From Actinomycetes bacterium (GTDB taxonomy: Bacteria; Actinomycetota; Coriobacteriia; Coriobacteriales; Eggerthellaceae): a stretch of DNA of 64,000 nt. Where the stretch lies: contig JAEZDJ010000065.1 in NCBI GenBank assembly GCA_023429565.1, positions 3,501 to 67,500 of the forward strand, given 5' to 3'. Positions 43,651 to 62,580 of this stretch are shown here, piece by piece. The translations under genes were made by a program, and so were the position numbers. Under the pieces are notes generated by a model. That model searched no databases. It was not told where the DNA came from and saw nothing but the letters and a program-made list of their open reading frames with translations. Within the stretch, counting starts at the first letter, position 1. Each line of letters begins with the position of its first letter.

Positions 43651-44296
43651 TCCCCTCATCGTCCGTGCCGCCATTTTCGACTTCGACGGAACCCTCTTCG
43701 ACTCTTCACCCGCCTGGGAGGAGGTGTTGGTCGGATACCTCGACGACTTCGGCGTGCCCGCGCCCGAAGGATGCATCATGGACGAAGTCAAGGCGCTGGG
43801 GCTGCTTGGCGGCGCAAAGAAGTACAGAGAAAGCTACTCTATACCCCGCACGCCCGAGCAGATTGTCGCAAGCTGGCGCAAGGCTATGGGCACGCGCTAT
43901 CGCGAAGACATTCCCCTGCATGCGCACGCACGCACCTATCTTGAAAAACTCAAGGACCAAGGCGTCTATCTGGCGCTGGCGACCGCCATGGAGAGAGACT
44001 TCGTGGAGAGCGCCCTTGAACGCACGGGAGTGGACGCACTCTTCGACCTGGTGGTGACCACCGGCGATCTGGGCGTCGACAAGGGAAGCCCGCGCATTTT
44101 CGAATACTGCATCGAGGCTGGGGCGGCCACAAACGAAACCTCGGTGGTGTTCGAAGACTCCCCCACCGCAGCACGCGTATGCCAAACCGCAGGCATTCCC
44201 GTCATTGGAGTGTTTGACGGGATGTCCGAGCAAGATTTCATGCGCATGCAACCCTATTGCGTGAAAACGATCCGTTCTTATAGCGAACTGCTCTAA
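43643..44296 (+). CDS. HAD-superfamily hydrolase (beta-phosphoglucomutase-like subfamily IA phosphatase)
   Basis: AAIFDFDGTLFDS (DxDGT motif I), ...VFEDSPTAA.... ATGAATGA overlap with the kinase stop. Confidence 0.85.
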   Translation: MNDPLIVRAAIFDFDGTLFDSSPAWEEVLVGYLDDFGVPAPEGCIMDEVKALGLLGGAKKYRESYSIPRTPEQIVASWRKAMGTRYREDIPLHAHARTYLEKLKDQGVYLALATAMERDFVESALERTGVDALFDLVVTTGDLGVDKGSPRIFEYCIEAGAATNETSVVFEDSPTAARVCQTAGIPVIGVFDGMSEQDFMRMQPYCVKTIRSYSELL

Positions 44297-44316
44297 CGCC
44301 AAAAGGAGGCTCACCC

Positions 44317-46407: not shown

Positions 46408-46482
46408 TGGCTCCCCGGGTAGGATTCGAACCTACAACCCTCCGGTTAACAGCCGGATGCTCTGCCGTTGAGCTACCGAGGA
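46408..46482 (-). tRNA. tRNA-Asn (anticodon GTT), CCA encoded
   Basis: Reverse complement: TCCTCGG-TA-GCTC..GAGC-A-TCCGG-CTGTTAA-CCGGA-GGGTT-GTAGG-TTCGAAT-CCTAC-CCGGGGA-G-CCA. Confidence 0.9.
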
Positions 46483-46516
46483 ATAGTCGCGAACCTCTCG
46501 GAACGCGCAAGTGAAA

Positions 46517-46544
46517 ATTATACCCGAACTGCAGATATGCGCAA
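46517..46544 (-). promoter_or_regulatory. Putative tRNA-Asn promoter (TTGCGC-N16-TATAAT)
   Basis: Minus-strand hexamers at 46544-46539 and 46522-46517. Confidence 0.5.
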
Positions 46545-47090
46545 TACCGATTTTTGCATTTTTTCAGGATGCGCCTGTCGACCCAATCCAACCGGAAGCG
46601 CTTCTTTGGCGCAGCCGTTCAACCCTCTCTCAACAGGGGCTTCCCCTCATCCACGCACTTCGGTGCCAGCCATCCGCCCTCTTTTCCTTTTCCGGTTCTT
46701 CAAAGGAAAAAGACCGGGATCTGCATACAGAGACGCTGTTTCATCCCCGTTCCGATGAAAAGGTTTGCCAGACGAATATCTCATACCGAAAGGATTAGCA
46801 TCAGCTTGGCTCAGTTTGAAATACTGAATTCTCTTCCCTCATATCATATGGGGGACACAAAGACCCATGGCCTCTTCATACTTCACTGCGTTCGGAACGG
46901 ACCTTCGTCTTCGCGCTGTCTGTCCAAATGCCCCCATCGTTTGTTGGTCGTATTTCGCAGCTTAACCTGCACACCGCCCGCAGCAACGTTGAAGGGGCAG
47001 GAGAAAAGAGAGAAGGAGACGCAGGGGAAGACGGACCGACGCACCAAGATCGCACTAGACGACGGGAGAAGAATGAAAGAGGAGGAGAAC

Positions 47091-49496
47091 ATGGCCGATT
47101 CCATCGAGGCCTCCACGCAAGAACATTGGGGGGAAACCAACGGAAAGAAATATCGCCGCGGCTCGCGCCTGCCGAAAAAAACCGACAGTCGACCACCGGC
47201 CCCCACAGCGGAGACCCCGAAAGTTCCTTGGACGTGGGAAGAAGACGGCATGACCGTCATACGCGGCACGGCACGAAGCGCTCCGGGATGTCATAACGTA
47301 TGCGGCATCCTTTCCTACGTGAAAAACGGGAAGCTGATCAAAGTGGAAGGCGATCCAGAGGACCCCTATAACCAAGGGCGGCTCTGCAGCCGTTGCCTCT
47401 GCATCCCCGACTATGTCTACCACGAGGATCGTCTGCTGCATCCGATGAAGCGAGACCGCTCAAACCGCGGCAAGGACAAGTTCGTAGAGATCTCGTGGGA
47501 CGAAGCCTATGAGATCATCACGCGCGAGTTTAAGCGGATCGTCGACACCTACGGCGCTGACAAGATTGCCATGTGCCAAGGCACGGGTCGCGACATCCAT
47601 CAGGTCACGCGGCTGAACGCCTGCATAGGATCTCCCAACGAAGGCGTGCCATACTTCGCTGGCAACTCCTGCTATCTGCCCCGCATCGCCTCAATGGCAT
47701 GCATGCTGGGCGGCTCCTGCGTCATGGACTGCTCCCAGTTCCTTCCCAAGCGTTACGACGATCCGCGCTACACCGTGCCCGAATATTGCATCGTCTGGGG
47801 CCACCAGCCCTTTTACAGCAACGCTGACGGTTTTTACGGACACTGGATCACGGATTTGATGAAACGCGGAATGAAAGTGGCCGTCGTCGATCCCCAACTC
47901 ACCTGGCTCGCCGCCCGGGCAGGAAAAGACTGGTTACGCGTGCGTCCCGGCGGAGATGGCGCGTTGGCCATGGCCATGCTGAAGATCATCTGTGACGAAA
48001 AGCTCTACGACCAAGATTTCTGCGATATGTGGGTCTATGGTCTAGAAGCCGTTTGCGAGCGCGTCGGCGAAATGGACTTGGACGATCTCTGCGAAAGGGC
48101 ATGGGTCGACAAGGAAGATGTCGTCCGCGTAGCCCGCACCTACGCCTCCGCACATCCCGCCGCCATCCAGTGGGGAGTTGCACTCGACCAGCAGACGGGT
48201 GGACAGCAAGCCGCTCATGCCATCACGGCAATGTGGTGCATCACCGGTAACCTTGATGTTCCGGGTGGCAATGTCATGGGAGACGCCTGTTGGGGAATCG
48301 ATCAGCCAAACTGGGTCGGCACGTGGGGATGGGACGAGCTCATGACCGAGGAAGAGCAGTCCAAGCGCATTGGCGTAGAACGCTACCCCATGTTCGCCGT
48401 CGGCTTCAAGAACCTGTCCTCCAACGCCACCATTGAAGCGTGGCAGCGTGGCGAGATCCCCATTCGCGGCGCCTACATCGTCACCAACAACTTTCTTGCC
48501 ACGATGGGAGCCCAGGCCGAGCAACAACTTGAATGGTACAAAAACATCGACTTCGTCGTGGTTTCAGACCTTTTCATGACACCCACCATGATGGCGCTTG
48601 CCGATGTCGTGCTGCCTGCCGCCACCTATGAGGAACGCGACGGATTCGGCGGGCTTAACGCCTACAGAATCAGCTGCATCAACAAGGCGATCGAACCGGT
48701 TGGTGACTCCAAGCCGGACAACACCATCTTTCTCGAATTAGGAAAACACCTGACCGATGCAATCAAACCCGCCAATAGCGATATCGCCTGGCCATGGGCC
48801 AGCGTCCAAGAGATGTGGGATTACGCGCTCGAGGACGGCGGATTCACTTGGGACGAACTGCGCGATTCCACATGGAAGTACCCTGAGTTCAAGTATCGCA
48901 AATACGAAACGGGAGACCTGCGGCCCGACGGCCAACCAGGTTTCCGCACTGAGACCGGACGTGCGGAAATCTATTCCATGGTGTTCCATCACACCTCGTG
49001 GTCAGGCCTCGATCCGCTGCCGAGCTACGTCGAGCCGGTGGAAAGCCCTTACAGCGCCCCCGACGACGTTGCCGAGTATCCCTATATCGTCACCTCCGGT
49101 GCCCGCGTGCCGCACTTCTTTCACTCCGAGCAGCGCCAGATCAAAAAACTCCGCACCCTGCATCCTGACCCGCTCGCGTATCTACATCCCAGCACTGCCC
49201 GCGCACACGGCATAGAGGAGGGCGACTGGATCTGGCTGGAGAACAAGCACGGCAAATGCAAATACAAAGCTTCGTTCAATGACACCTACGACCCCCGCGT
49301 ATTGCAGGCGGAGCATGGCTGGTGGTTCCCGGAACGCAAGAATGACGCCGAAGAAAACCTGGACGAGGAAAAGAAGGGATTGTTCGGCGTTCTCGAGTCG
49401 AACATCAACAATCTGGTGCCTTTCGATGCGGGCGTGTCAGGCTTTGGCTCGAACTACAAGGCCATGATGTGCAAGATCTACAAGGCCGATAAATAG
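47091..49496 (+). CDS. Molybdopterin (bis-MGD, DMSO-reductase superfamily) oxidoreductase catalytic subunit A, no Tat signal
   Basis: 801 aa from the ATG after GAAAGAGGAGGAG. Blocks: SAPGCHNVCG...EGDPEDPYNQGRLCSRC, ITGNLDVPGG, HGWWFPE. C-terminal beta-barrel text resembles the acetylene-hydratase/pyrogallol-transhydroxylase branch (from memory). The 179-codon upstream extension in the track is low-complexity. Confidence 0.85.
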   Translation: MADSIEASTQEHWGETNGKKYRRGSRLPKKTDSRPPAPTAETPKVPWTWEEDGMTVIRGTARSAPGCHNVCGILSYVKNGKLIKVEGDPEDPYNQGRLCSRCLCIPDYVYHEDRLLHPMKRDRSNRGKDKFVEISWDEAYEIITREFKRIVDTYGADKIAMCQGTGRDIHQVTRLNACIGSPNEGVPYFAGNSCYLPRIASMACMLGGSCVMDCSQFLPKRYDDPRYTVPEYCIVWGHQPFYSNADGFYGHWITDLMKRGMKVAVVDPQLTWLAARAGKDWLRVRPGGDGALAMAMLKIICDEKLYDQDFCDMWVYGLEAVCERVGEMDLDDLCERAWVDKEDVVRVARTYASAHPAAIQWGVALDQQTGGQQAAHAITAMWCITGNLDVPGGNVMGDACWGIDQPNWVGTWGWDELMTEEEQSKRIGVERYPMFAVGFKNLSSNATIEAWQRGEIPIRGAYIVTNNFLATMGAQAEQQLEWYKNIDFVVVSDLFMTPTMMALADVVLPAATYEERDGFGGLNAYRISCINKAIEPVGDSKPDNTIFLELGKHLTDAIKPANSDIAWPWASVQEMWDYALEDGGFTWDELRDSTWKYPEFKYRKYETGDLRPDGQPGFRTETGRAEIYSMVFHHTSWSGLDPLPSYVEPVESPYSAPDDVAEYPYIVTSGARVPHFFHSEQRQIKKLRTLHPDPLAYLHPSTARAHGIEEGDWIWLENKHGKCKYKASFNDTYDPRVLQAEHGWWFPERKNDAEENLDEEKKGLFGVLESNINNLVPFDAGVSGFGSNYKAMMCKIYKADK

Positions 49497-49518
49497 CAGC
49501 CAGGAAGGAATGAAAGAC

Positions 49519-49863
49519 ATGGCATATCAAGGCATTTTGGTAGACGTTGACTTCTGCACCGGCTGCGAAGCCTGCATCCTCGCCTGCCAGCAGGAACACG
49601 GCTACTCCGAGAAGGAGTACGGCCTGACCATCACGAAGCTTGGCCCACTGCACATCAACGAGTCACAAAAGGACTACCAATACGATTTCATCCCACAGTT
49701 CACCAAATGGTGCGACCTCTGCAAAAACCGCGTGAGCAAGGGCAAGCGACCCACCTGCGTGCAGCATTGTCAGGCACAGTGTCTCGACTGGGGTGACATG
49801 GAGGACCTCGCGAAGAGGATCGACTCCACCAAGCAGATGATTGTCGCCATCACTCAGGCCTAA
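49519..49863 (+). CDS. Small 4Fe-4S ferredoxin-type electron-transfer subunit A (114 aa)
   Basis: MAYQGILVDVDFCTGCEACILAC (Cx2Cx2Cx3C) and CDLC...CVQHCQAQC. RBS AGGAAGGAA. Confidence 0.85.
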   Translation: MAYQGILVDVDFCTGCEACILACQQEHGYSEKEYGLTITKLGPLHINESQKDYQYDFIPQFTKWCDLCKNRVSKGKRPTCVQHCQAQCLDWGDMEDLAKRIDSTKQMIVAITQA

Positions 49864-49936
49864 GGTCAATCGAGCCGACGTCACCCGAGCGCAGGGTGCT
49901 GGCCAAGGCAATAGAACGAGGGGAAGGAGGTCAACC

Positions 49937-50137
49937 ATGACTCAACAGTTTGAAGATGATTTTGGCGGACGAATCGCCGAGAGGCTGATGCATGTCGACG
50001 TGCGCATGGCCGGTGTGAATAGCCATGAAATCACACAGCCAGAACGCGAGCAAGGACATATCGACTGGAAGGATCAAAACTCCGCCAACATGAAGAAGAT
50101 GGCGCGCGGCGAAGTCACCCCCATCTACCACCAATAA
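49937..50137 (+). CDS. Hypothetical 66-aa soluble protein
   Basis: MTQQFEDDFGGRIAERLMHVDVRMAGVNSHEITQPEREQGHIDWKDQNSANMKKMARGEVTPIYHQ. Very strong RBS GGAAGGAGG 6 nt upstream. Confidence 0.6.
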   Translation: MTQQFEDDFGGRIAERLMHVDVRMAGVNSHEITQPEREQGHIDWKDQNSANMKKMARGEVTPIYHQ

Positions 50138-50215
50138 CCGTCGCGCCTCTCCCGCGATGGGGAAACACGATGCCGAGCACGGGAGCGCACAAGACGAAGG
50201 CGGCACCGCTCCAAG

Positions 50216-50250
50216 CGTGCTGCTGCGGCGAGAACCGCCGCAGCAGCACG
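50216..50250 (+). other. Perfect 15-bp GC-rich hairpin (5-nt loop) in the 220-nt gap inside the cluster
   Basis: CGTGCTGCTGCGGCG-agaac-CGCCGCAGCAGCACG. No U-tract follows. Confidence 0.6.
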
Positions 50251-50357
50251 AGACAGACCGTCCCATCAGCACGGCAAGACAATGCCCGCGATGATGGAAC
50301 AAACGGATTGCCTCACAAGCGCAATCTCGACCGACCACACGAAGCAAAGGAAAAACC

Positions 50358-51416
50358 ATGGCACAAAACAAGACCATCGATATCAACATGCACTTCCTGC
50401 CCACCGACTTGTTCACCGACGAACAGGTGCTGAACGGTTTTCTGTACTCTGCGCCTGTATCGTTCGGCATGAAGGCTTACATCGACAAGACGCCAGACGG
50501 CGCAAAAGACCAGCTCATCCTGGAGTATCCTGAGGGCAAGCAAATCCTCAACTATGTCGAGGGTGACTATACGCTTGAGACGAAGCTCCAGGCCATGGAC
50601 GAAAGTGGCGTGGACATCGCCCTTCTGCGCATGCCTGTGTGGCAGGAATGGCTGCCGCTGGATATCTGCAAGATCGTGAACGACCAGGCTGCCGAGATGT
50701 GCAAGCGTTCGGGCGGACGCCTGTACGCCAACGCCGTCGTCCCACCGTGGAACCGCAAAGAGGACATATACGAACTCGAGCGCTGCATCGGAGACCTAGG
50801 GATGGTGGGCGTGCAGCTGGCCTGCTGCTACGGCGACCGCTTCCTCGACGACCAACTCTTCAAGCCCTACCTTAGGGTCATCAACGACAAAAAGATCCCG
50901 GTCGTCGTGCACCACACGCCCGGCCAGAACGCCTACGATAACTTCGACGAGTACACAGTGTTACGCCGCGAGCTCGGCCGCGTCCATGCGCAGGCGGCAG
51001 CAGTGGGCCGAGAGATCTATTCGGGCATGTTCGACGAGTTCGAAAACTTGAAGTTCATACACACCATGTTTGGGGGCAACTGGTTCAGCTTGCAAAACAT
51101 CTTGGCCCCGCACCGATCCACCAAGAAGAAAGAGGCCATGAATCGTCTCGTCACCAACGTCGACCATGAGGCATATGACCGCTATCTGACCAACAACATT
51201 TATTTCGATATGACACATCCCATGAGTTGGGGAAAGGATCAACTCGAGTGTGCTGTGAAGGTGAGCGGAGCCGACCATCTGCTGCTGGGTTCATCGTTTC
51301 CTGTGTTCTATGAGTGGATGGCCCGCTCCGTGGAGTCCATCAACGCCATGAGCGTACCTCAGGAGGACAAGGACCTCATGCTGGGCGGCAACGCGGCGAA
51401 GCTGTTCAATTTGTAA
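50358..51416 (+). CDS. Amidohydrolase_2 (PF04909-like; ACMSD/LigW/LigI fold) family protein with non-canonical active-site positions
   Basis: TIDINMHFLP N-terminus, VVVHHTPG, YFDMTH, LLGSSFPVF. 352 aa. RBS AAAGGAAAAA. Confidence 0.75.
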   Translation: MAQNKTIDINMHFLPTDLFTDEQVLNGFLYSAPVSFGMKAYIDKTPDGAKDQLILEYPEGKQILNYVEGDYTLETKLQAMDESGVDIALLRMPVWQEWLPLDICKIVNDQAAEMCKRSGGRLYANAVVPPWNRKEDIYELERCIGDLGMVGVQLACCYGDRFLDDQLFKPYLRVINDKKIPVVVHHTPGQNAYDNFDEYTVLRRELGRVHAQAAAVGREIYSGMFDEFENLKFIHTMFGGNWFSLQNILAPHRSTKKKEAMNRLVTNVDHEAYDRYLTNNIYFDMTHPMSWGKDQLECAVKVSGADHLLLGSSFPVFYEWMARSVESINAMSVPQEDKDLMLGGNAAKLFNL

Positions 51417-51537
51417 GACGAGCGATCGGCGCACCGGCTTACTGAAACCAGTGCGCCGAAGCGAAAGAACGTCGACCAGCATCTTTCTGAAAAAACTATG
51501 GATGCCCGTAAGGGGGGCGTCCGAAAGAGGGGAAACT

Positions 51538-53010
51538 ATGAACAATCCTTCTGCCGCTGCAACCGGTGCACCTGTGACGAAATCCATGGAGAAAACACCG
51601 CCTTACGCCTGGCCATGCCTGATCGTGTCCTTGCTCGCGGGCATCGGCATGGTGTTCGCCTGGATGTGGCTGCCAAGCGTCACGTTCCCGGTGTTCAATA
51701 GCTGGCTCACCGAGAACAATGCGTTTTTCGCAAACCCCGCTAACTTCGGCCTGCTTTCCAATGTCATGGGGCTCGTTCCCATCGGTGCCCTTATCATGGC
51801 CCTTCCCACCACGTTTCTCGTACGCAAATTCGGCCCGAAAGCCACGACGCTTATCGGTCTCGGTGCCGCAGTCGTAGGGACGTCGCTGAGTGCAGCCACC
51901 GTAGGTGGCGACTTCTATCTCTTCTTGGCGGGACGTTTCATCCTCGGCCTTGGGCTTTCCACCTGCGTAGTCGCAGGTCCCACTTGTGTATCCATATGGT
52001 TTCCCGACTCCACGCGCGGACGTGCCATGGCCATTTGGTCCTGTTGGGCCCCCATTGGCATCTTCCTGTCCAACTTCGTCAATGACAGCGTGTACCATCT
52101 GGCAGGTTCAAGCATCGCAAACCTTCAGTGGGTGTGGGCGGCGGTCGCCCTCGTGCTGGGCATCGTGTTTGCCGTCGTGTTCCGTGAACCACGCGCCGAA
52201 GAGCGTTCGCAGGTATCGCCCGAACGCAAACCGCTCAAGGCCGTCCTGAAGTTCTTCAAGAGCCGCCAGCTGTGGTGCCTCATCGTCATGTTTGCCATCT
52301 TCAACTACATGAACTACGCCTTCAGCCAATATCTGAAAACCTGGCTCCAAACCCCCGAACTGCTTGGCGGCTTGGGATGGGATGCGACGACTGCCGGCCT
52401 CTGGGGCGGCCTGATTGTAGCCTGCGGTGCCCTCGCCCCCATCGGCGGCCTTATCCTCGACAAGACGCCCAAGGACAAGAAGTACCTCTGCGTGGTCGTC
52501 GGCATCTTGGGACTCACCATCTGCTCAGCCCTGGCGTTCCATGCCGAGTTCTTCATCCCGTACGTGCTGTTCTTCTGCATTGGAAACATGATGCTGAACG
52601 CCTGCTGCCGCCCACTCGTTCCGACATTCGTATTCAAGGGCGGCGCCACCGCTGTCGCGTTCGGCCTGTCCTTCCTGACGCTAGGGCAGTACGCCGGACA
52701 GATTGCCACAAGCTACGTGCTCACACCGTTCAGCAACGGCCTCACCGCGGCCTCCAACGTAGCCATCGAAGCCAAGAAAGCCGTGCTCGCTGCGGGAGGC
52801 TCCCCTGCCGATTTCGGTGCCGCCATCGACCAGGCCGCACAAGAAGCGCTTGTGCAAGGCATCCATGTGGACCCGATGCTGGCCTTCTGGGCGCTCGTGC
52901 CCATCGGCATCATCGGCTGTCTGCTGAGCTTTGGCGTCATGCCTTCCAAGAAGCGGGCTGGCACTCCCGCCAGCAATCCCGCTGAAGACCAGACGGCATC
53001 CCAGCATTAG
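51538..53010 (+). CDS. MFS transporter 1
   Basis: 490 aa with about 12 hydrophobic segments. RKFGPK loop between TM2 and TM3. RBS AAAGAGGGGAAA. Confidence 0.85.
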   Translation: MNNPSAAATGAPVTKSMEKTPPYAWPCLIVSLLAGIGMVFAWMWLPSVTFPVFNSWLTENNAFFANPANFGLLSNVMGLVPIGALIMALPTTFLVRKFGPKATTLIGLGAAVVGTSLSAATVGGDFYLFLAGRFILGLGLSTCVVAGPTCVSIWFPDSTRGRAMAIWSCWAPIGIFLSNFVNDSVYHLAGSSIANLQWVWAAVALVLGIVFAVVFREPRAEERSQVSPERKPLKAVLKFFKSRQLWCLIVMFAIFNYMNYAFSQYLKTWLQTPELLGGLGWDATTAGLWGGLIVACGALAPIGGLILDKTPKDKKYLCVVVGILGLTICSALAFHAEFFIPYVLFFCIGNMMLNACCRPLVPTFVFKGGATAVAFGLSFLTLGQYAGQIATSYVLTPFSNGLTAASNVAIEAKKAVLAAGGSPADFGAAIDQAAQEALVQGIHVDPMLAFWALVPIGIIGCLLSFGVMPSKKRAGTPASNPAEDQTASQH

Positions 53011-53047
53011 ATTCTGATTTGCGACGCGGCTCGGCTCCATTGCAAGC

Positions 53048-53078
53048 GGGCGGCTTCCCTTTTGACCGGGAGCCGCCC
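53048..53078 (+). other. GC-rich hairpin between the two MFS genes
   Basis: GGGCGGCTTCCC-ttttgacc-GGGAGCCGCCC (one bulge). No U-tract. Confidence 0.4.
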
Positions 53079-53141
53079 ACCAAACGGCAGCTCGCCATCC
53101 GATAAACCTGTATCCCCATGCACGGGGAGAAGGGATTCATC

Positions 53142-54854
53142 ATGAGCGACTTCAAAAAGCATTCTTACGACAACAGGCACCATCGCCAAGCAGGCCCCCT
53201 TTTCCATTCACCTGTTTCAGGTCCCCAACATCTCGCAGCGGAACAAGCTCACAACCATTACGACGGCAAGACCCGAAGGGGCATCGACAACGCGAGAAAC
53301 AACCAGCACAAGGGATGGATCGTGTTGTTCGTGATGCTGTTCTGCGGCATCATCGTCATCATGAACCAATTCAAGGTGCCCACGTTCATGCCCGCCCTCA
53401 TGGTGGATTTCCACACCGATCCAGGCACGACTGGATGGCTCATGTCTGTCATCGCCCTTGCCGGCATCGTCACGGCCTTCCCATCCGCGTTTCTGCTCAA
53501 CCGTTTCGGGCCGAAGAAGATCGGCCTGTTCGGCTTGGGATTCATGATCGTCGGTTGCGCAGTAGGAGCAGCAGCATCTTCCTTCGCTCAACTCATCGTC
53601 GGTCGTGCGCTCGAGGGCATCGGCGTTGCCATGATGGGCGTCGTGGCCACCACTGTCATCTCCATGTATTTCCCCCGGGAGAAGGCCGGGCTTCCCATGG
53701 GCATCTGGAATCTATGGTATGTCGTCGGGTCCACACTCGCCTACAACATCGGCGTGCCCATGGCTCTCGTGCTTACCGGAGATCCGCACAACTGGCATGC
53801 CTGGTGGTGGTTCTCAGATGTGCTCGCATTCGTGTCTTTTGTGGCGTTTGCCCTGTTTGTAAGCGTCCCCTCTGCAGGCAAGGGAATCGCCGCCAGATGT
53901 GAGCGTCAGACAGGCAAGCGACAACACCGGCCCGCCTCTATCCTACTCGAGAGCTTCAAAGTCAAACGGATGTGGCTGTTCGGACTCGGCTTCTGTTTCC
54001 TTATGTTCACATCGCTTGCGGTGCTTACCTGGATTCCCACCTATGTACAGGAAATCGAGCTCGACCGGCTCCTGGCCGAAGGCGTGATGCTTGCTGACGC
54101 ACAAGCCTCAGCCGGGATCGCCGGCGGCTCGATGGCATCACTCGGGTTCGCGGCCAGCATCCCCATGGCGCTCGTGACGGCATTTCTGTTGGGCAAGTTC
54201 CAGAGCCTCAGGTCACGCAACGCCATGGTGATCATTGCCGGATTCTGTGCGTTCTTCTATGTGGGCGCGTTTTTGGTCCCCTACGAGTACCTGCCCGCTT
54301 ACCTCGTGCTGCTGGGACTCGAGAGCGGTTGGACATCGGGCGTCGTCTGGTCGATGGTGCCCGTCACCATGCCCAAGCGCGTCACCATGCCCATCGGCAT
54401 GGCCATCATCATCTTCTTTCAAGGTGTTTCGAACCTGCTGTGCACGCCGACCGTGGGTTACATCATAGGAGTCGACCAAACTTGGACACATGTCGCTCCT
54501 CTGTGCGCAGTCACGGCAGCCATGGGCACCGCTCTCTGGATCATCTACGTGATCATGAAGCCACCTGTTTTCGAGGAGGACGAGGAACCGGTCTCAAAAT
54601 CGAGACGGGACATCGCCGACGCCGTTTCAGGAGCAACCAGCCTCTCGACCGTAGCGGCTTCGCTTGGCCTAGACGGCAGAGAGCCCCACCCTCCCTCCTG
54701 CGCCCCTCCGGGAACGACATCGAAATCCGCCAAGGATATCGATGTCACAACCGGAGCAACTCCAGGGGTGGCAAGCGCCTGCAAGGATCTAGAGCTCGAC
54801 GCGATAGACAAGGTGTCGGCTCAGCTTGGAATCAAGCCGCCCGGCACGGCATGA
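53142..54854 (+). CDS. MFS transporter 2 with ~100-aa hydrophilic C-terminal tail
   Basis: 570 aa. NRFGPKK loop; 12 hydrophobic segments; tail EEDEEPVSKSRRDIADAVSG... Confidence 0.85.
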   Translation: MSDFKKHSYDNRHHRQAGPLFHSPVSGPQHLAAEQAHNHYDGKTRRGIDNARNNQHKGWIVLFVMLFCGIIVIMNQFKVPTFMPALMVDFHTDPGTTGWLMSVIALAGIVTAFPSAFLLNRFGPKKIGLFGLGFMIVGCAVGAAASSFAQLIVGRALEGIGVAMMGVVATTVISMYFPREKAGLPMGIWNLWYVVGSTLAYNIGVPMALVLTGDPHNWHAWWWFSDVLAFVSFVAFALFVSVPSAGKGIAARCERQTGKRQHRPASILLESFKVKRMWLFGLGFCFLMFTSLAVLTWIPTYVQEIELDRLLAEGVMLADAQASAGIAGGSMASLGFAASIPMALVTAFLLGKFQSLRSRNAMVIIAGFCAFFYVGAFLVPYEYLPAYLVLLGLESGWTSGVVWSMVPVTMPKRVTMPIGMAIIIFFQGVSNLLCTPTVGYIIGVDQTWTHVAPLCAVTAAMGTALWIIYVIMKPPVFEEDEEPVSKSRRDIADAVSGATSLSTVAASLGLDGREPHPPSCAPPGTTSKSAKDIDVTTGATPGVASACKDLELDAIDKVSAQLGIKPPGTA

Positions 54855-55002
54855 CGGGATCTCGCAACAGCATGTCCTACGTAAGGGATACGCTCGGCAG
54901 GAGGGGTTTTCAATCTGATCCCTCTTGCCGACATCGGGTTGTGGAACGGATCGGGGGCTTTTGCAGAGCTCATCATTTCGTCTGAGACCAGCGGGTCGTC
55001 GT

Positions 55003-55011
55003 CCCCCCCCC
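55003..55011 (+). repeat. C9 homopolymer tract in the LuxR upstream region
   Basis: gtcgtCCCCCCCCCgatag. The longest single-base G/C run I saw in the window; the 7-mers I noticed lie inside recG and rpoD coding sequence. Confidence 0.9.
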
Positions 55012-55033
55012 GATAGATAGCGACATTTTGCGG

Positions 55034-55039
55034 TATACT
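55034..55039 (+). promoter_or_regulatory. Candidate -10 box TATACT for the LuxR gene
   Basis: Lies 23 nt downstream of the C9 tract and about 97 nt before ATG 55136. -35 weak. Confidence 0.25.
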
Positions 55040-55135
55040 CGCGGCGGGAGCCTGCCGGGCAGGGGACGTTCGCTCTTCGGACATATCGCGAGCAGCTCCT
55101 CCGGGGCATTTTTCATGGGTCAGTTCAAGGGGGAA

Positions 55136-56608
55136 ATGGCAATGAAAGAGGATAGGGCCGTCTCCAAACGCCGTCTCGGCGCTATGGAGTTGTTGGGGAT
55201 CTGCGGATTCGCATTCTTTTTCGGATGGATGCTTGTTGCGTTTTATTGGCTGTTCGTCATATTCTTGCAGGATATTCCCATCGCTCTGCGCGACGGCATC
55301 CAACTTTTCATTTTCATCGGAATGGCATCAGGCTACATGGTCCTTCATCTTGTTGCCAAGAGACTCGAAATCAACCGAATCGCGGTTCCCATGCTGGCTG
55401 CCGAGGCAATGCTCACACTCCTCTTGCCCTTATGCGCATTGGCCTTGAGCTTTGGCATCGCGCTGCCGGTCCCGCTGCTCTGCGGCGTCAACCTCCTCAC
55501 CGGCCTATGTGGCGCTTCCCTCACAGTCGGTTGGTTGGATGTCAGCAGTCGCATACGACTGCTGAGCCTTGAGCGATTCACGAGCCTATCACTCGTGGGC
55601 GGAGGAATTCTTTTCTTGTTCGTCGCGTTAATGCCAACCAATATGCAGCCGTTTTTCTGCATCATGTACGCGCTCGCAAGCATCGGCCTTCAGGCATTCG
55701 CTGGAGCTCGCGCCAGGGACGACACCGATACGTCGACAATCAGACATCAAAAGAGCCCATGGAAATTCACCAAAGAGATCGAGCCATCGCTTGTGGCATT
55801 CGGCATCGTGTTTGGACTCACGTTCGTTTACCTGTTCAATTCAGGAACTGATGCAGTGCTCGTCGGTCTGCTCTTCGTTATTCCGGGCGCGGGAATCGTC
55901 GCTGCGTTTGCCCTACAAGGCAAGGCCATCGGCATCATAGCGATCCAACGGATCCTGCTTTGCGTGACAGTTCTGGCCTGCCTCGCCATTCCCTTCTCCA
56001 CCGAAAGCGTGCAGCTCGCCTGCTCTTGTCTCGTCGTCGCCTCCTGGGCTGCGTTCATCTCCATCAACTACGCCCTCGTCGTCAAGAAGAGCATCAGACA
56101 AGAAGACACCTCAGTGTTCCGACAAATTCCTCTCAGGCTGGTGTTCAGTGCCCTAGGGTTCTTTCTTGGCTGGGGCGTAGCGACCGCTATCACCGCATAT
56201 TACGGTGCCCACTCCGATGCCTTCACCGTCGTGCGCCTCTCGATGGCATTCATCTTGGTTGCCGTCATCATGCTGTTCTTTCCCGTCGATCGCCATCATG
56301 ACGATGTCGCGCACAACAACAACACCGCTCCCTCTCCTTTGTCCTTGGAGTCCAGCACGAAAGAACCGTTCGACAGTCGCTGCGCGGCCGTTGCCGAGCT
56401 CTACCAGCTTTCTCCCCGAGAGACCGACATTCTCAAGTTCCTCGCCAAAGGGCGCAACGCCGCCTATATCCAGAGCAAGCTGACCATATCCCCACATACC
56501 GTCAAGAGCCATATTTACAACATCTACCGCAAGCTCAACATTCATTCCCAACAGAAGCTCATGGATTTCGTTGAAGACTGCCCGATCGATGGACCAAAAC
56601 CAGGTTAG
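55136..56608 (+). CDS. LuxR-family transcriptional regulator with polytopic N-terminal membrane domain
   Basis: About 400 aa of repeated hydrophobic helices, then LSPRETDILKFLAKGRNAAYIQSKLTISPHTVKSHIYNIYRKLNIHSQQKLMDFV (GerE/LuxR HTH). ATG at 55136 follows AAGGGGGA. Start uncertain: 55115 or 55142 are alternatives. Confidence 0.85.
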   Translation: MAMKEDRAVSKRRLGAMELLGICGFAFFFGWMLVAFYWLFVIFLQDIPIALRDGIQLFIFIGMASGYMVLHLVAKRLEINRIAVPMLAAEAMLTLLLPLCALALSFGIALPVPLLCGVNLLTGLCGASLTVGWLDVSSRIRLLSLERFTSLSLVGGGILFLFVALMPTNMQPFFCIMYALASIGLQAFAGARARDDTDTSTIRHQKSPWKFTKEIEPSLVAFGIVFGLTFVYLFNSGTDAVLVGLLFVIPGAGIVAAFALQGKAIGIIAIQRILLCVTVLACLAIPFSTESVQLACSCLVVASWAAFISINYALVVKKSIRQEDTSVFRQIPLRLVFSALGFFLGWGVATAITAYYGAHSDAFTVVRLSMAFILVAVIMLFFPVDRHHDDVAHNNNTAPSPLSLESSTKEPFDSRCAAVAELYQLSPRETDILKFLAKGRNAAYIQSKLTISPHTVKSHIYNIYRKLNIHSQQKLMDFVEDCPIDGPKPG

Positions 56609-56793
56609 GGAACCGAAGCGCAAACAGAGCTCGGGACGCTCTATCGCGACAGCGTCCGCCTTCCCCTCGCAACCGCCGAACTTCATTCATACTCCTTTTC
56701 AAAGCCTCATGCTCTTATGCTGATTCCATCGACGCATACCCGTTGCATGAGAAGCTCATACTCCCGCCATGCTTCACTTCAGTAATCCCGAGA

Positions 56794-56815
56794 GGGGCGG
56801 ATCACATGGGGCGGA
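56794..56815 (+). repeat. Direct repeat GGGGCGGA-N6-GGGGCGGA upstream of Mo-enzyme B
   Basis: Copies at 56794-56801 and 56808-56815, 38 nt before ATG 56853. Confidence 0.7.
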
Positions 56816-56852
56816 CACCCGACAGGTCCGAGTGAACGCGAGAGGAGAAGCA

Positions 56853-59231
56853 ATGGTGGAAAATGCAGTCACGGAAAAGGACCGCGACGAGATAGGAACA
56901 TCCAAAGAAGAGAATCAGTTCAATTTCGGTGCCGGAGAAAAACAGGAGGTCGACCCGCGCTGGAAGCATCCCGGCAAGTGGCAGTATGAAGAAGACGGCA
57001 TGATCGTCACCCGTACGTCAGTGTGGTCCGCGCCGGGCTGCCATGAGGGCTGCGGCGTGTTGGTGTACTCCGACAAAGACACCGGGAAGTTCATCAAGTG
57101 CGAGGGCGATCCAGACGATCCCTACAACCGCGGCGCACTATGCCCGCGCTGTCTGGCTTTCAAGCAGGTCCAATTTCATCCCGACCGCATTCTGCACCCC
57201 ATGAAACGCTCCGGCGAACGCGGCCAAGGCACATGGAAACGCATCACCTGGGACGAGGCGCTTGATACCTGCTATCGAGAATTCCGTCGAATTTCCATGA
57301 CCTACGGCGGCGACTCCATCCACGCGCTGCGCGGCACCGCCCGCGACAACCAGTGGCAGGTCGGCCGCATGGCCAACACATTCGGAAGCCCCAACGAGTA
57401 CGGCTTCCTGTCCGGCACGGCATGCTATCTACCCCGCCTGTCACTCATGATCATGACATACGGAGGAATGCTCATTGCCGACTTCTCACAGTTTTCGGCA
57501 CTGCGCTACGATGATCCGGAGTGGATATGCCCCGAATGCACTATCGTATGGGGCTGCAACCCCACCATTTCCAATCCTGATTTCTTCATGGGTCACTGGG
57601 TCACCGATGCCATGAAGCTAGGCTGCAAGCTCATCTCCGTCGAACCACGTGTGACCTGGCTTGCGGCCCAGGCAGACATCCACCTGCAGCTGCGACCGGG
57701 CACCGACACGGCACTTGCATTGGGCATGATCAAGGTCATCGTGGACGAAGACCTCTACGACCATGACTTCGTTGACAAGTGGACTTACGGCTTCGACGAG
57801 CTGGCCGCTCGCGCCGGAGAGCTGTCGCTAGATCAGGTAGAAGAAATGACCTGGGTTCCCAAAGACAAGATCGCCAATGCCGCACGCTTGTTTGCCACCT
57901 CTCATCCAGCAAACGTCGTATGGGGGCTTGCCGTGGACATGCAGAGCCAAGGAACCCCCTGCGCGGCCGCCATCGCAGCCCTGTGGACCATCACAGGCAA
58001 CCTAGACGTGCCGGGTGGCATGTGCTATACCGCATCACCCATGGGAGTCGACCAGCCATCCGCCGGCGCGTGGGGCATTTACGATCTCATTTCAGAGGAG
58101 ATGCAGAAGAAGCGAGTAGGGTGGAAAGAGTTTCCCATGTACCGCTATGGCCTCACCCAGGCGATGCCTGACATGTGTCTAGAATACATGGAAAACGACA
58201 AGGTCAAAGGCGTATGGATTCAGACATCCAACGGCATCGCCTGCATGAGCTGCGAGGTCGACCGTTGGTATAAGGCCATGAAGAAGCCTGAGTTCATTGC
58301 AGCGGTCGACATCTTCATGACACCGACCATCCAATCATGTGCCGACATCGTCATGCCAGCGCAAACCTGGGCCGAGAAGCACTCCGTGCGCGCTCACTAT
58401 TATTTTCTGTCCGCCATCACCGGTGGCTGCACGGCCGAGGGCGAGGCGAAATCAGACTGCGAGATCAACCGCGAACTAGCCCAATACTTCGACAACGACG
58501 ACGAATTCAACCGCGCCATCGAACGCCCCGAGGGCAAACAGCACACCTGGCCGTGGGAAACAGAGGACGAGGTCTATGACGAGATCGTCAAACCCTCCGG
58601 CTTCACGTTTCAGAACCTCATGGAACATGGCCCCGTCTATCAGAAATACATTTACAAGAAGTATGAAAAGGGCCTCATGCGTCCCGATGGACTACCCGGA
58701 TTCAACACCCCTACCGGCCGCATTGAACTTTACTCCACGTTGTTCGAAAAGTTCGGCTACGACCCGCTGCCCTATATCGAAGAGCCCGGCATCGGCCCCG
58801 TCACCACGCCAGACCTTTATGAGAAATATCCGCTCATTATGATTACCGGTGCTCGCACGACCTCGTTCTTTCATTCCGAGCATCGTCAGATTCCTTATCT
58901 GCGTCAGCTGACGCCCGACCCATGGGTGCAGATACATCCACGCACTGCCTCAGCGCTCAACATCAACGAGGGCGACTGGGTTTGGATAGAGAACCACCGC
59001 GGCCGCTGTCGGCAGCGTGCCCGCATCACATTCGAAGTGCATGAGAAGGAAATCGCCGCACAGCATGGGTGGTGGTTTCCCGAGCAGGACGGAGCGGAAC
59101 CGAACTTGTATGGGCTCCGACAGTCCAACATCAACCAGCTTCTGGCAAACAAACCAGGCACCACCGGCTTTGGTGCCGATTTGAAATGCACGCTCTGCAA
59201 GGTCTATCGCTGCAAAGAGGAGGAACTGTAA
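56853..59231 (+). CDS. Molybdopterin oxidoreductase catalytic subunit B (paralogue of subunit A), no Tat signal
   Basis: 792 aa from the ATG after GAGAGGAGAAG. Shares the blocks W.YEEDGM, SAPGCHEGCG, EGDPDDPYNRGALCPRC, ITGNLDVPGG and HGWWFPE with subunit A. Confidence 0.85.
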   Translation: MVENAVTEKDRDEIGTSKEENQFNFGAGEKQEVDPRWKHPGKWQYEEDGMIVTRTSVWSAPGCHEGCGVLVYSDKDTGKFIKCEGDPDDPYNRGALCPRCLAFKQVQFHPDRILHPMKRSGERGQGTWKRITWDEALDTCYREFRRISMTYGGDSIHALRGTARDNQWQVGRMANTFGSPNEYGFLSGTACYLPRLSLMIMTYGGMLIADFSQFSALRYDDPEWICPECTIVWGCNPTISNPDFFMGHWVTDAMKLGCKLISVEPRVTWLAAQADIHLQLRPGTDTALALGMIKVIVDEDLYDHDFVDKWTYGFDELAARAGELSLDQVEEMTWVPKDKIANAARLFATSHPANVVWGLAVDMQSQGTPCAAAIAALWTITGNLDVPGGMCYTASPMGVDQPSAGAWGIYDLISEEMQKKRVGWKEFPMYRYGLTQAMPDMCLEYMENDKVKGVWIQTSNGIACMSCEVDRWYKAMKKPEFIAAVDIFMTPTIQSCADIVMPAQTWAEKHSVRAHYYFLSAITGGCTAEGEAKSDCEINRELAQYFDNDDEFNRAIERPEGKQHTWPWETEDEVYDEIVKPSGFTFQNLMEHGPVYQKYIYKKYEKGLMRPDGLPGFNTPTGRIELYSTLFEKFGYDPLPYIEEPGIGPVTTPDLYEKYPLIMITGARTTSFFHSEHRQIPYLRQLTPDPWVQIHPRTASALNINEGDWVWIENHRGRCRQRARITFEVHEKEIAAQHGWWFPEQDGAEPNLYGLRQSNINQLLANKPGTTGFGADLKCTLCKVYRCKEEEL

Positions 59232-59590
59232 TGGCGCGCAATGGGATTCTTGTCGACTATCAGTACTGCACGGGGTGTTATTCATGCGAAGTCGCCTGTC
59301 AAGCCGAGCATGAGCTGCCACTCGAACAATGGGGCGTACGCGTCTTGCAAAATGGTCCTTGGCCAGTCAAGGACCATGAGGGCAACGAGACGGACAGCTT
59401 CATCTATGACTTCATCCCTTCATTCACGAAGATATGCGACCTATGCAACGCCCGTCAAGACAAGGGTAAGATTCCCACCTGCGTGTTCCACTGCCAGGCG
59501 AAGTGCATGGAGTTTGGTCCGATAGATGAGTTGGTGAAAATTCTCGATGCCAAGCCGCAGCAGTACCTCTGGGTGCCACCCTGCGCATAA
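59231..59590 (+). CDS. Small 4Fe-4S ferredoxin-type subunit B (119 aa)
   Basis: MARNGILVDYQYCTGCYSCEVAC...CDLC...CVFHCQAKC. Its ATG overlaps the upstream TAA (TAATG). Confidence 0.85.
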   Translation: MARNGILVDYQYCTGCYSCEVACQAEHELPLEQWGVRVLQNGPWPVKDHEGNETDSFIYDFIPSFTKICDLCNARQDKGKIPTCVFHCQAKCMEFGPIDELVKILDAKPQQYLWVPPCA

Positions 59591-59654
59591 GGCTCAAACT
59601 GCACGAGAGCAGGGCAACGCAGCATCGCTCCAATCTCGCTTTGAAGAGGACTTT

Positions 59655-59683
59655 GACATCCCTCGAATAAGGCGAGGGATGTC
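59655..59683 (+). promoter_or_regulatory. 11-bp perfect hairpin covering the Shine-Dalgarno region and first ATG of the downstream gene
   Basis: GACATCCCTCG-aataagg-CGAGGGATGTC. The 3' arm contains GAGGG and ATG 59679. Confidence 0.55.
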
Positions 59684-59687
59684 CATC

Positions 59688-60356
59688 ATGGCCAATTTCG
59701 CCACTTCCCAAGCGACCGAACAGGACAAGGAGCCATCCATGGACCACCAAGGCCTGAAAGACAGCATCAGCCGAGCACCGAGCACATCGCGTCCCGCCCT
59801 GGAACGCCTGCTCCTACACGTCACCGCTGGTGATTTGGTCGTTCCTGATTGGCTCCCCTACCTTGACGGCGCAAAAAACCATCGAGATTTCTTCGACGCC
59901 ATTTACGGCGACGAGGAAAAGAAGGAAACCCTCGTCTGGGCCGAATGGGCGAAGATGTCACACAAGGGCTGGATCAACCGTTTTGAACCGGATATTTGTC
60001 TGCAGAATGTAATCATCGAAGCCGATGGACTGCCCATCGGCTTCGAAAGTGGGGTTATGCTGGCTCCCACAGGAAGTCGCGACACCCTCACGAACTTCTA
60101 CGTGTTCAAAAGCAATGCCTTCAACACGAGCGCGGCAGAGTTCGTCACATCCATCGGTGGCGCGTTCTGCTGCGCGGGATACGCCTTCTTAGGTGTCTAC
60201 GGCCTCTACCGATACCGAGGAAACGTCATCCTCGAAGGGTGGCAGGTTGAAAGGCCCCCTCGCCCATTACCCGACGTACTCACACCCGTTTCAGCAGATA
60301 GCATTTGTGAATCCTCGGATTGCGCTCGAAATCATGGGGAATGGTACTCGCGGTGA
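59688..60356 (+). CDS. Hypothetical protein with a single C-terminal hydrophobic helix (tail-anchored?)
   Basis: MANFATSQATEQDKEPS... 222 aa. Hydrophobic segment FVTSIGGAFCCAGYAFLGVYGLY near the C-terminus. Start could be 59679. The last 77 nt overlap the convergent rlmL 3' end. Confidence 0.55.
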   Translation: MANFATSQATEQDKEPSMDHQGLKDSISRAPSTSRPALERLLLHVTAGDLVVPDWLPYLDGAKNHRDFFDAIYGDEEKKETLVWAEWAKMSHKGWINRFEPDICLQNVIIEADGLPIGFESGVMLAPTGSRDTLTNFYVFKSNAFNTSAAEFVTSIGGAFCCAGYAFLGVYGLYRYRGNVILEGWQVERPPRPLPDVLTPVSADSICESSDCARNHGEWYSR

Positions 60357-62580
60357 TGTCCTCGATGGAGACGCCATACTTTGCCAAGGCGTCCACGTCG
60401 GGCTTGAAGGTGCGCAGATTGCACGAGAACACGGCTTCTCCACCCTCCGACAAAAGACGCGACACCCCTATCAGAAGCTCCACGTGATCACGCTGGACGT
60501 CCCAGGTCCGCGTTCCCATCGCCTTGGAGTTTGAGAAGGTGGGAGGATCCACGAACACCAGGTCAAAACGGCGCGGGCTGCGACGGGTCTCGGTGATCCA
60601 TTCCATGACGTCGCTCCGCTCGAAGCTGTGTTCGGGGCCCTCGAAGCCGTTGGCCGCCATGTTGCGACGCGCCCACTCAAGATAGGTCTGGGACAGGTCG
60701 ACCGTCGTGGTCGAACACGCTCCCCCACCTGCAGCATGAACGCTTGCCGCACCCGTATAGGCAAACAGGTTGAGGAAATCGGCGCCCTTGGCCTTCGACC
60801 CCACCAACTCACGAGTCAGGCGGTGATCGAGAAACAGCCCCGTGTCCAGATATCCCGACAGATCGACCTCCAGCAGATAGCCATCCTCCTGCACCTGAGT
60901 GACGTACGAGCGCCGCCCCGCTGCCCGATATTGGCTTCCACCCCGGTCGCGCTGACGAACCTTGGAGAACACGTGGTCAGGACGCACGCCTAACACCACC
61001 GGCGCAAGCACCAGCACATCGTCGAAACGACGCTGGGCCTTAGCGGCATCGATGGACGAGGGGGCAGCGTATTCGGCGATATGGAGATACGTGTTCCCCG
61101 TGGCGCTTCCGGCGCCTTCGAACAGGTCGATGGCAACCGCATAGTCGGGCAGATCGGCATCATAGACGCGGTAGCAGGTGATCCCTTCGCGCTTTGCCCA
61201 CTTACGACGCTCCTTGGCCGCCTTGTGAAGGCGGAATGCGAATTGCTCGGAGTTTTGCTCGAACACCTCGATGCGATGCTCTGCGCCGCCTGCCGGATCA
61301 GGAACCGTCGCGACGGCCGGCTTCGTTGGCGGCCGATCGAACACGGAGGCAGACAATGCCACGCGGTCCTGCCCAAGGCACGCCCTCACGGCCGGCTCCA
61401 CACCAAAACGCGCCGCGACGCCCTCGCCCCCCGCAACGGCAAACACCGAACCTGCAGGAGATGCCAAGGAGGCTTGCGTGAAAGACGTCGCCTCCGCTTG
61501 GGCCTGGGCTTCCGACATGACGCCGTCTCGTGCTGACATGACGCACGCAATCAGGCAACGGGCAGAGCCGCCCTCCTCCTGCGCAGACACGGCTGCCACG
61601 CGCTCGACTATGCCAGCCATGCCCTCTGCGTCAGCAAACTCGATGCTCACCGCCTGACGGAGGCCTGCGCGCTTGACACGGCCACGTGCGCGGGAAATGG
61701 CGGGAGACGACGTGCTTGCACCGGCAAAACGGACATGGGAGAGATCGGGCGGAGCCGATGCCGGCATATCGACGGCGCCCGGCGTGACCGCCGAGGAAAG
61801 GCCCCGTTCGAAACGCTCGTCAGCCTCATCCAGCAGTTCTCCCCACACTTCCTCGTCAAAGGACGACCATCCTCGAAAGCCCCAGCGGCCTCGCGTGAGG
61901 CCAGGAGCCACGTCGCATGCCATCGAGGCCGCCTCCACGACAAGTGCGCCGTCGCCGCACGAAGGGTCGACGCAGGCGGCGTTCGTCGAAGCGAGCGCAG
62001 GCCACCCGGCCAAAGCAAGCAACCCTGCTGCCAACGCGCACTCAAGCGGAGCCTCGTCTCCGTCTTCGGGCGAAAGGTAGGTGCGGCGATAGAGCGACTC
62101 ACCCGACAGGTCGATCGATATCGTCGCCTTGTTCTCGCGCACCCTGACGTCAACGATCACGCCAGGATTGTCCACGTCGACGTCAGGACGCTGGCCCCAC
62201 ACGTCGCGCAGGCGGTCACAGACCGCATCCTTCACTTTGAGCCCTGTGAAACGCGTGTTGCGCAACGCGTCGTTCATGCCATGTCCCTGCACCGCCATGC
62301 TCACGCCGCGGGAAATGACGTCCTCCCAAGGAAGAGCCTTCACCCCTTCGTAGAGCGCATCGGCATCGACGGCTGCCACGCGACCGACGACCAGCGTCAC
62401 GCGGGACGCAAGGCGCGACCACAGGCAGACCTTGAGCGCATGACGCGCGTCGCAGAAAAAAGCCACGCCCCCGCCGAGGGGACGCACACGTCTGATCCCG
62501 ATATGCCTGATCTCCTCAGCCAAGGGCCTCTCCAATCCCGCAAGGCAGCTGGCGAACAGTTCAAGGTTTTCGTTTTCCAT
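60280..62580 (-). CDS. rlmL: Bifunctional 23S rRNA methyltransferase RlmK/L-like (THUMP + two class I MTase modules)
   Basis: MENENLELFASCLAGLERPLAEE (THUMP N-terminus), DPSCGDGALVVEAA and FAYTGAASVHAAGGGA SAM motifs, DPPTFSNSK. Track start is TTG 62595; the ATG at 62580 is more likely. Confidence 0.85.
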   Translation of the reverse strand: MENENLELFASCLAGLERPLAEEIRHIGIRRVRPLGGGVAFFCDARHALKVCLWSRLASRVTLVVGRVAAVDADALYEGVKALPWEDVISRGVSMAVQGHGMNDALRNTRFTGLKVKDAVCDRLRDVWGQRPDVDVDNPGVIVDVRVRENKATISIDLSGESLYRRTYLSPEDGDEAPLECALAAGLLALAGWPALASTNAACVDPSCGDGALVVEAASMACDVAPGLTRGRWGFRGWSSFDEEVWGELLDEADERFERGLSSAVTPGAVDMPASAPPDLSHVRFAGASTSSPAISRARGRVKRAGLRQAVSIEFADAEGMAGIVERVAAVSAQEEGGSARCLIACVMSARDGVMSEAQAQAEATSFTQASLASPAGSVFAVAGGEGVAARFGVEPAVRACLGQDRVALSASVFDRPPTKPAVATVPDPAGGAEHRIEVFEQNSEQFAFRLHKAAKERRKWAKREGITCYRVYDADLPDYAVAIDLFEGAGSATGNTYLHIAEYAAPSSIDAAKAQRRFDDVLVLAPVVLGVRPDHVFSKVRQRDRGGSQYRAAGRRSYVTQVQEDGYLLEVDLSGYLDTGLFLDHRLTRELVGSKAKGADFLNLFAYTGAASVHAAGGGACSTTTVDLSQTYLEWARRNMAANGFEGPEHSFERSDVMEWITETRRSPRRFDLVFVDPPTFSNSKAMGTRTWDVQRDHVELLIGVSRLLSEGGEAVFSCNLRTFKPDVDALAKYGVSIEDITASTIPHDFERNPRIHKCYLLKRV

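Follow-up and report, generated by a model that had tools for sequence, protein, structure and literature searches.

The DNA analysed here is a stretch of 64,000 nucleotides (the window) from the metagenome-assembled genome (MAG) of a gut Eggerthellaceae bacterium, and its positions 46,483 to 60,356 hold a 13-kb block of ten genes that lie on the plus strand and follow one another with short gaps. The block opens with the catalytic subunit of a molybdenum (Mo) enzyme, which we call MoA (801 residues, 47091–49496); behind it lie a small iron–sulfur subunit, FeS-A (114 residues, 49519–49863, with weak Fer4 and DmsB-like matches), and a protein of 66 residues that belongs to no known family (49937–50137). 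There follow a protein of the amidohydrolase_2 fold (352 residues, 50358–51416), two transporters of the major facilitator superfamily (MFS; 490 residues, 51538–53010, and 570 residues, 53142–54854), and a polytopic membrane regulator of the LuxR type (490 residues, 55136–56608, with alternative starts at 55115 and 55142). A second molybdoenzyme unit closes the block and consists of MoB (792 residues, 56853–59231), FeS-B (119 residues, 59231–59590), and a last gene encoding a third protein (59739–60356). An original prediction, made from the letters of the DNA, had named the ten genes in this order, and every reading frame is present. Its domain calls also stand in Pfam: PF04879, PF00384, and PF01568 score above their cut-offs in both MoA and MoB, the two small iron–sulfur proteins are of the Fer4 type, PF04909 is found in the amidohydrolase (score 69.8 bits, cut-off 26.4), PF07690 (MFS_1) in both transporters, and GerE at residues 424–478 of the regulator.

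This block is very probably orthologous to the Coriobacteriia cluster for ellagic-acid metabolism (eam), a system that is already described and has been characterised biochemically in close orthologues (Bae et al., PNAS 2025, PMC12771579). According to that study, eam clusters occur in Gordonibacter sp. 28C, G. urolithinfaciens, G. pamelaeae, and Ellagibacter isourolithinifaciens, and in Gordonibacter sp. 28C ellagic acid induces 13 eam genes more than 1,000-fold. In work on enzymes from 28C and G. urolithinfaciens, purified Eah yielded urolithin M5 from ellagic acid, Eadh1 turned urolithin M5 into urolithin M6 by loss of the C4 hydroxyl (kcat/Km 729,000 s-1 M-1), and Eadh2 turned urolithin M6 into urolithin C by loss of the C10 hydroxyl. 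The authors assign both dehydroxylases to the catechol dehydroxylase clade, and their expression constructs for the two enzymes each contained the respective small third gene. They describe a link to respiration as untested (PMC12771579). An Eah-type enzyme, EAL (ROT88165.1, from G. urolithinfaciens DSM 27213), has been characterised independently (Xie et al., bioRxiv 10.64898/2025.12.05.692447), and according to a 2026 preprint the dehydroxylations in G. urolithinfaciens are promoted by H2. The scheme of the original prediction, in which a PF04909 enzyme hydrolyses or decarboxylates the substrate and two successive Mo-dependent dehydroxylations follow, has thus been demonstrated for the orthologous cluster.

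We assign the block to eam because its proteins are 90–93% identical to the characterised ones and because the synteny is complete. Gene content, gene order, and orthology to the characterised proteins are direct observations of this analysis. With the accessions of Table S5 (PMC12771579), in which Eadh1 is WP_114602618.1 and Eah is WP_114602621.1, both from Gordonibacter sp. 28C, BLASTP aligns MoA to Eadh1 over 800 residues without gaps at 93% identity, and the amidohydrolase to Eah over its full length, again without gaps, at 90% identity. An exact-sequence look-up agrees, in that MoA shares a 90% cluster with RDB58485.1/WP_114602618.1 and the amidohydrolase shares one with RDB58488.1/WP_114602621.1. 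The window and the published clusters have the same gene families in the same order, down to the ferredoxin partners, the small third genes, the MFS transporters, the membrane LuxR regulator, and the tRNA-Asn gene upstream.

The Eadh2 of Gordonibacter sp. 28C (WP_114601864.1) is encoded on a different contig of the draft genome. It was sought by name, in a 1,110-member cluster and by homologue search, where the members are unnamed, and a route through the primer sites of the authors was used instead. The gene-specific 19-mer of primer oMB-Eadh2-R, which was designed on G. urolithinfaciens sequence, matches exactly in a metagenome contig (L067), at the stop codon of the third gene after orthologues of MoB and FeS-B. 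On this contig the MoB, FeS-B, and third-gene orthologues come after Eah, two MFS genes, and a LuxR gene, and MoB and FeS-B are 93.4% and 86.6% identical to their counterparts there. In G. pamelaeae, primer oMB-Eadh1-R anneals with 2 mismatches at the stop codon of the orthologue of the 66-residue reading frame, and the authors' reverse primer for Eah matches the end of its orthologue in the 28C contig exactly. From these primer sites it follows that MoA, FeS-A, and the 66-residue protein correspond to the published Eadh1 unit, and MoB, FeS-B, and the last gene to the Eadh2 unit, the catalytic subunit of which is shared at about 93% identity. Five related clusters have a MoB orthologue of 87–94% identity behind their LuxR gene. 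We therefore predict that MoA is the bis-molybdopterin guanine dinucleotide (bis-MGD) dehydroxylase acting on the C4 hydroxyl of urolithin M5 and that MoB is its bis-MGD counterpart acting on the C10 hydroxyl of urolithin M6.

The amidohydrolase (Eah below) would be the lactonase-decarboxylase that turns ellagic acid into urolithin M5. It has the fold and the length of EAL. By mutation or docking, Xie et al. probed 14 residues of the EAL pocket, and 13 of them are identical in the amidohydrolase (H12, L64, N65, Y66, V67, D70, Y71, H185, H186, R204, R208, H287, and V316); at position 320 the window protein has Trp, where the preprint names Val. Identity to EAL is about 81%, as judged through the close G. 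pamelaeae and L067 orthologues rather than through ROT88165.1 itself. Its best solved relatives are LigW 5-carboxyvanillate decarboxylases (E about 5e-11), with ACMSD also among them. Fold and family (PF04909) are common to Eah and these LigW/ACMSD-type decarboxylases, whereas the sequence similarity to LigW is low and Eah carries out both lactone opening and decarboxylation of ellagic acid.

The paralogy within the block is far beyond chance. MoA and MoB share 43% identity over 762 residues (E = 0), and FeS-A and FeS-B likewise share 43% (E = 4e-36); the motifs by which the original prediction had recognised the two pairs are visible in the alignments. Each Mo subunit has four N-terminal Cys residues in the arrangement C-x3-C ... 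C-x2-C, which fits one [4Fe-4S] cluster. The beta subunits are 114–119 residues long and contain 9–10 Cys, in each case a CxxCxxCxxxC group and a second group of five, and they would thus hold two clusters, as against the four of DmsB; the nine Cys of FeS-A (CxxCxxCxxxC ... CxxC-x11-CxxxCxxxC) are enough for two [4Fe-4S] clusters. A twin-arginine motif ([ST]RRxF[LI]K) and transmembrane or hydrophobic segments were not found in the Mo and FeS subunits of either pair, nor was a gene for a membrane-anchor subunit found for either Mo enzyme. These features agree with the cytoplasmic, substrate-inducible system that had been proposed, as does the strong induction of the orthologous 28C cluster by ellagic acid. 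FeS-A orthologues in related loci are 61–82% identical, and orthologues of the 66-residue protein occur at the same position with 46–78% identity.

A third Mo enzyme was not found in the window, which hence has no Eadh3. In Ellagibacter isourolithinifaciens DSM 104140 (locus L008, 19419–21056) we noticed a third Mo enzyme, 41–42% identical to each of the window paralogues, that is encoded downstream of the cluster behind a second LuxR gene, a position that fits the published Eadh3 (the urolithin C C8-hydroxyl dehydroxylase). A close Eadh2 orthologue was not seen there within the 10 kb fetched.

Conservation of the gene order was examined by scanning the GTDB species representatives with the window amidohydrolase, which gave 55 loci. 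The order Eadh1, FeS, small reading frame, Eah, MFS (one or two), LuxR, Eadh2, FeS, third gene is found again in Gordonibacter, Ellagibacter, Adlercreutzia sp. ZJ176, and several MAGs. In the window the left neighbour of the block is a tRNA-Asn gene (GTT anticodon, 46408–46482, identified by ARAGORN and Rfam), and the right neighbours are rlmKL, encoding RlmK/L (60280–62595), and a gene for an RpoD-type sigma factor (62745–63974), all on the minus strand and all where the original prediction had put them. In nine related loci the tRNA-Asn gene precedes the Eadh1 orthologue by about 1 kb, and two of the clusters, one from an Ellagibacter MAG and one from Adlercreutzia sp. ZJ176, have rlmKL downstream. 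These shared neighbours indicate that the position of the cluster is old and not the result of a recent insertion.

The catalytic subunits are 87–94% identical across genera (against loci L002, L003, L013, L052, and L067), compared with 71–77% for the housekeeping protein RlmKL. At four-fold degenerate sites the catalytic genes are only about 50–59% identical to their orthologues, and LuxR and rlmKL about 30–44%. Such protein identity, combined with four-fold sites near saturation, indicates that Eadh1 and Eadh2 are under purifying selection of unusual strength. Recent horizontal transfer was considered as a cause of the 90–93% identity and was rejected on account of these same four-fold sites.

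MFS transporter 1 has the hydrophobic segments of a polytopic transporter in hydropathy plots, and its orthologues in related clusters are 58–91% identical. The orthologues of MFS transporter 2 in Gordonibacter loci are 74–88% identical, the gene is absent from several other lineages, and the window protein has a long hydrophilic C-terminal tail that is unconserved. The LuxR regulator was said to be polytopic, and hydropathy indeed gives about 10–12 hydrophobic segments between residues 26 and 381; its orthologues at the equivalent position are 48–66% identical.

From these elements the following mechanism can be proposed. On sensing ellagic acid or one of its metabolites, the polytopic LuxR regulator in the membrane would switch on the cluster, and the MFS transporters would carry ellagic acid and urolithins across the membrane. 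Eah would open one lactone ring and decarboxylate the product to give urolithin M5. Cytoplasmic Eadh1, composed of the Mo-bisMGD subunit, the two-cluster ferredoxin, and the 66-residue protein, would strip the catecholic C4 hydroxyl to yield urolithin M6, and Eadh2, composed of the paralogous Mo subunit, its ferredoxin, and the 205-residue protein, would strip the C10 hydroxyl to yield urolithin C, which would then be exported. In each enzyme, electrons would pass from the small ferredoxin through the N-terminal [4Fe-4S] cluster of the catalytic subunit to the molybdenum centre. The activity of the window copy, what the transporters carry and in which direction, the ligand of LuxR, and the roles of the small third genes are all parts of this scheme that we infer; so is the physiological electron donor, for which H2, via a hydrogenase, has been suggested in G. 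urolithinfaciens.

Several observations weigh against reading the block as an eam cluster of the published kind. The function of the window copy is deduced from the 90–93% identity and the complete synteny, and the remaining 7–10% of sequence divergence could shift substrate preference. Because the LuxR regulator is only 48–66% identical to its orthologues, the inducer could also differ. MoB is equated with Eadh2 through primer site, synteny, and elimination rather than through the sequence of WP_114601864.1 itself. Moreover, the host is divergent, with an RlmKL protein 71–75% identical to those of Gordonibacter and Arabiibacter. One might then suppose that the block is a paralogous catechol dehydroxylase cluster that merely resembles eam and serves some other polyphenol, such as gallate or pyrogallol, lignans, catechins, or dopamine-type catechols. 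The family has room for such a cluster, as the genomes of Gordonibacter and Ellagibacter encode more than 30 uncharacterised enzymes of the catechol dehydroxylase family (PMC12771579) and many homologues exist at 47–60% identity, and the weakly conserved sensor would suit it. The catalytic subunits and Eah, however, match characterised proteins at 90–93%, as against just 43% between the paralogues within the cluster; the synteny is complete out to the tRNA-Asn neighbour, and the EAL pocket residues are conserved. We therefore regard a different polyphenol as highly improbable. Among the substrates that the original prediction had offered, ellagic acid and the urolithins, which it named first, match the eam orthology, and gallate/pyrogallol and lignans were not borne out, nor was the alternative of transhydroxylation.

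A related view would accept the eam identity and hold that a missing sulfur-mobilisation/accessory module and sequence divergence have left the cluster functionally altered, either poorly active or rerouted, for example from ellagic acid through urolithin M5 and urolithin D to urolithin C. In cultured Gordonibacter and some MAGs, a module lies between MFS transporter 2 and LuxR that consists of a 511-residue protein, a 145-residue protein, a SufS-like protein, and, in some strains, SufE (L003, 14686–17995; L050, 16422–20118; L009, 14518–16524; L057, 2619–6203). The 511-residue and 145-residue proteins have no Pfam match, and the SufS-like protein is a class-V aminotransferase. Neither the window cluster nor any other part of the 64-kb window contains this module, and its absence counts further against a cluster of the published kind. 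The in vitro ability of Eadh2 to make urolithin D from urolithin M5 speaks for a changed route, as does the authors' note that urolithin D is a major intermediate in pigs (PMC12771579). Nevertheless, the module is also absent from at least 5 other loci, including L067 with its exact Eadh2 primer match; the ten window genes are all intact, the purifying selection on the catalytic subunits is strong, and a housekeeping class-V aminotransferase is encoded elsewhere in the window. An altered cluster thus seems very unlikely. Finally, the top NCBIfam matches by E-value are models for Fdh-alpha, PhsA, and DmsA, which could suggest a respiratory or assimilatory reductase for an inorganic or S- or N-oxide substrate (formate dehydrogenase, thiosulfate or polysulfide, DMSO/TMAO, or nitrate reductase). 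Membership among such reductases had been singled out by the original prediction as a matter to check. Those scores lie far under the curated cut-offs (e.g. 234–248 bits against 666 for Fdh-alpha), and an NCBIfam scan of all ten proteins gave zero models at cut-off. The marks of respiratory DmsABC, Phs, and Fdh-N enzymes, namely a score at cut-off, a twin-arginine translocation (TAT) signal, a four-cluster DmsB-type beta subunit, and a membrane anchor, are lacking from the window enzymes; the nearest solved structure is that of acetylene hydratase, and urolithin dehydroxylase activity has been demonstrated for the orthologues. Judged from this orthology, the reductase reading is effectively refuted, and we give it almost no credence.

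The eam reading also sets the window enzymes beside other known systems. Hcdh, Cldh, and their relatives, the cytoplasmic catechol dehydroxylases of the Gordonibacter type, resemble them in having a bis-MGD subunit without a TAT signal and a small 4Fe-4S partner, in their adjoining MFS and membrane LuxR genes, in their substrate-induced expression, and in requiring a catechol. In contrast to these, the eam enzymes act on urolithins and, according to the authors (PMC12771579), remove the hindered C4 and C10 hydroxyls, not a para hydroxyl. Acetylene hydratase of Pelobacter acetylenicus (PDB 2e7z; E = 1.8e-71 for MoA and 1.9e-88 for MoB) is similarly cytoplasmic, belongs to the same superfamily branch, and has an N-terminal [4Fe-4S] cluster. 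It is, however, a monomeric tungsten hydratase with neither redox turnover nor a ferredoxin partner, whereas the window enzymes are orthologues of dehydroxylases, and we do not claim that they are acetylene hydratases.

The first three reactions by which ellagic acid from the diet becomes urolithin C are the work of the eam cluster; urolithin C is in turn the precursor of urolithin A, a metabolite that has been studied intensively. What the window adds to the published system is minor: a further uncultured host, a compact ten-gene layout, and attention to two uncharacterised small partner proteins. The copy extends the pathway to an additional Eggerthellaceae lineage, which is useful for the gene-based prediction of urolithin producer types, and it represents a minimal ten-gene layout at the conserved tRNA-Asn/rlmKL site; it opens no new question. 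It differs from the eam clusters of cultured Gordonibacter in its compactness, lacking the 511-residue/145-residue/SufS-like/SufE module, and from the published clusters in having no Eadh3, in a LuxR regulator that is only about 66% identical, in a host of a different Eggerthellaceae lineage, and in the form of its last gene.

This last gene was originally read as encoding a tail-anchored protein of 222 residues. The Met codon at 59739 begins 29 of 29 aligned homologues, drawn from 57 homologue clusters of about 180 residues, and the protein is thus most likely 205 residues long. Its hydrophobic stretch lies just above the transmembrane threshold in the window copy and below it in all three orthologues scored, and in an AlphaFold2 model (mean confidence score, pLDDT, of 88), which has a bundle of five helices and a seven-stranded sheet, the stretch forms a beta-hairpin within the sheet. 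The protein is accordingly predicted from the model to be soluble, and the tail anchor falls away. A fold search of the model against the PDB returned no meaningful match (best E-value 0.15), and a profile search found only 72 relatives among 1.84 billion representatives, so that the family counts about 70 sequence clusters. The C terminus of the protein is extended by 25 residues in the window lineage, and the last 77 nucleotides of its gene overlap the 3' end of rlmKL. Two distant relatives of the 205-residue protein were checked (in a family that includes P0223–P0278, L069, and L070); their neighbours are not Mo enzymes, and are instead an ArsC/glutaredoxin-like gene or a peptidyl-prolyl isomerase gene. 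Homology between the 66-residue protein of the window and a 66-residue reading frame adjoining one distant relative (L070) was not found. It is conceivable, if on balance doubtful, that the 66-residue and 205-residue proteins are true lineage-restricted subunits that set electron-donor coupling or assembly, with the SufS/SufE/511-residue module being dispensable.

The 15-bp hairpin noted originally is a perfect, GC-rich stem on the plus strand at 50216–50250 (stem 50216–50230/50236–50250, loop of 5 nucleotides), between the eadh1 operon and eah. A T tract is absent from it, and its sequence is unconserved among orthologous loci; GC-rich hairpins, each of them different, occur in this same gap in seven of the eight loci examined. 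The element after the Eadh1 unit may be a terminator without a T tract or an mRNA-stabilising element. Upstream of eadh1, on the plus strand, lies a non-coding leader or promoter region of 608 nucleotides (46483–47090), in which neither a molybdenum-cofactor (Moco) or other riboswitch (by Rfam) nor a convincing sigma-70 site was found. An Rfam scan of the whole window at gathering thresholds and a scan of the cluster by E-value yielded tRNAs only. Scans for sigma-70 sites and intrinsic terminators gave site counts no higher than in shuffled sequence, with zero on the plus strand upstream of the operons, and a search of five intergenic regions for a shared operator motif returned purine-rich or chance matches only. 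The leader does contain two palindromes, one at about 46682–46712 (TTTTCCTTT...AAAGGAAAA) and one at 46739–46760 (TTTCATC-N8-GATGAAA), which are possible candidate operator sites for the LuxR regulator; by blastn they are unconserved in orthologous loci.

Beyond the cluster, just upstream of the tRNA-Asn gene (43643–45630), the window encodes a HAD-family phosphatase and a RuBisCO-like protein, a pair that stands upstream of the cluster in none of the related loci. The RuBisCO-like protein resembles 2,3-diketo-5-methylthiopentyl-1-phosphate enolase, with a score of 365.8 bits that lies below the 409-bit cut-off. The G+C content is 55–58% within the cluster and 60–64% in its flanks.

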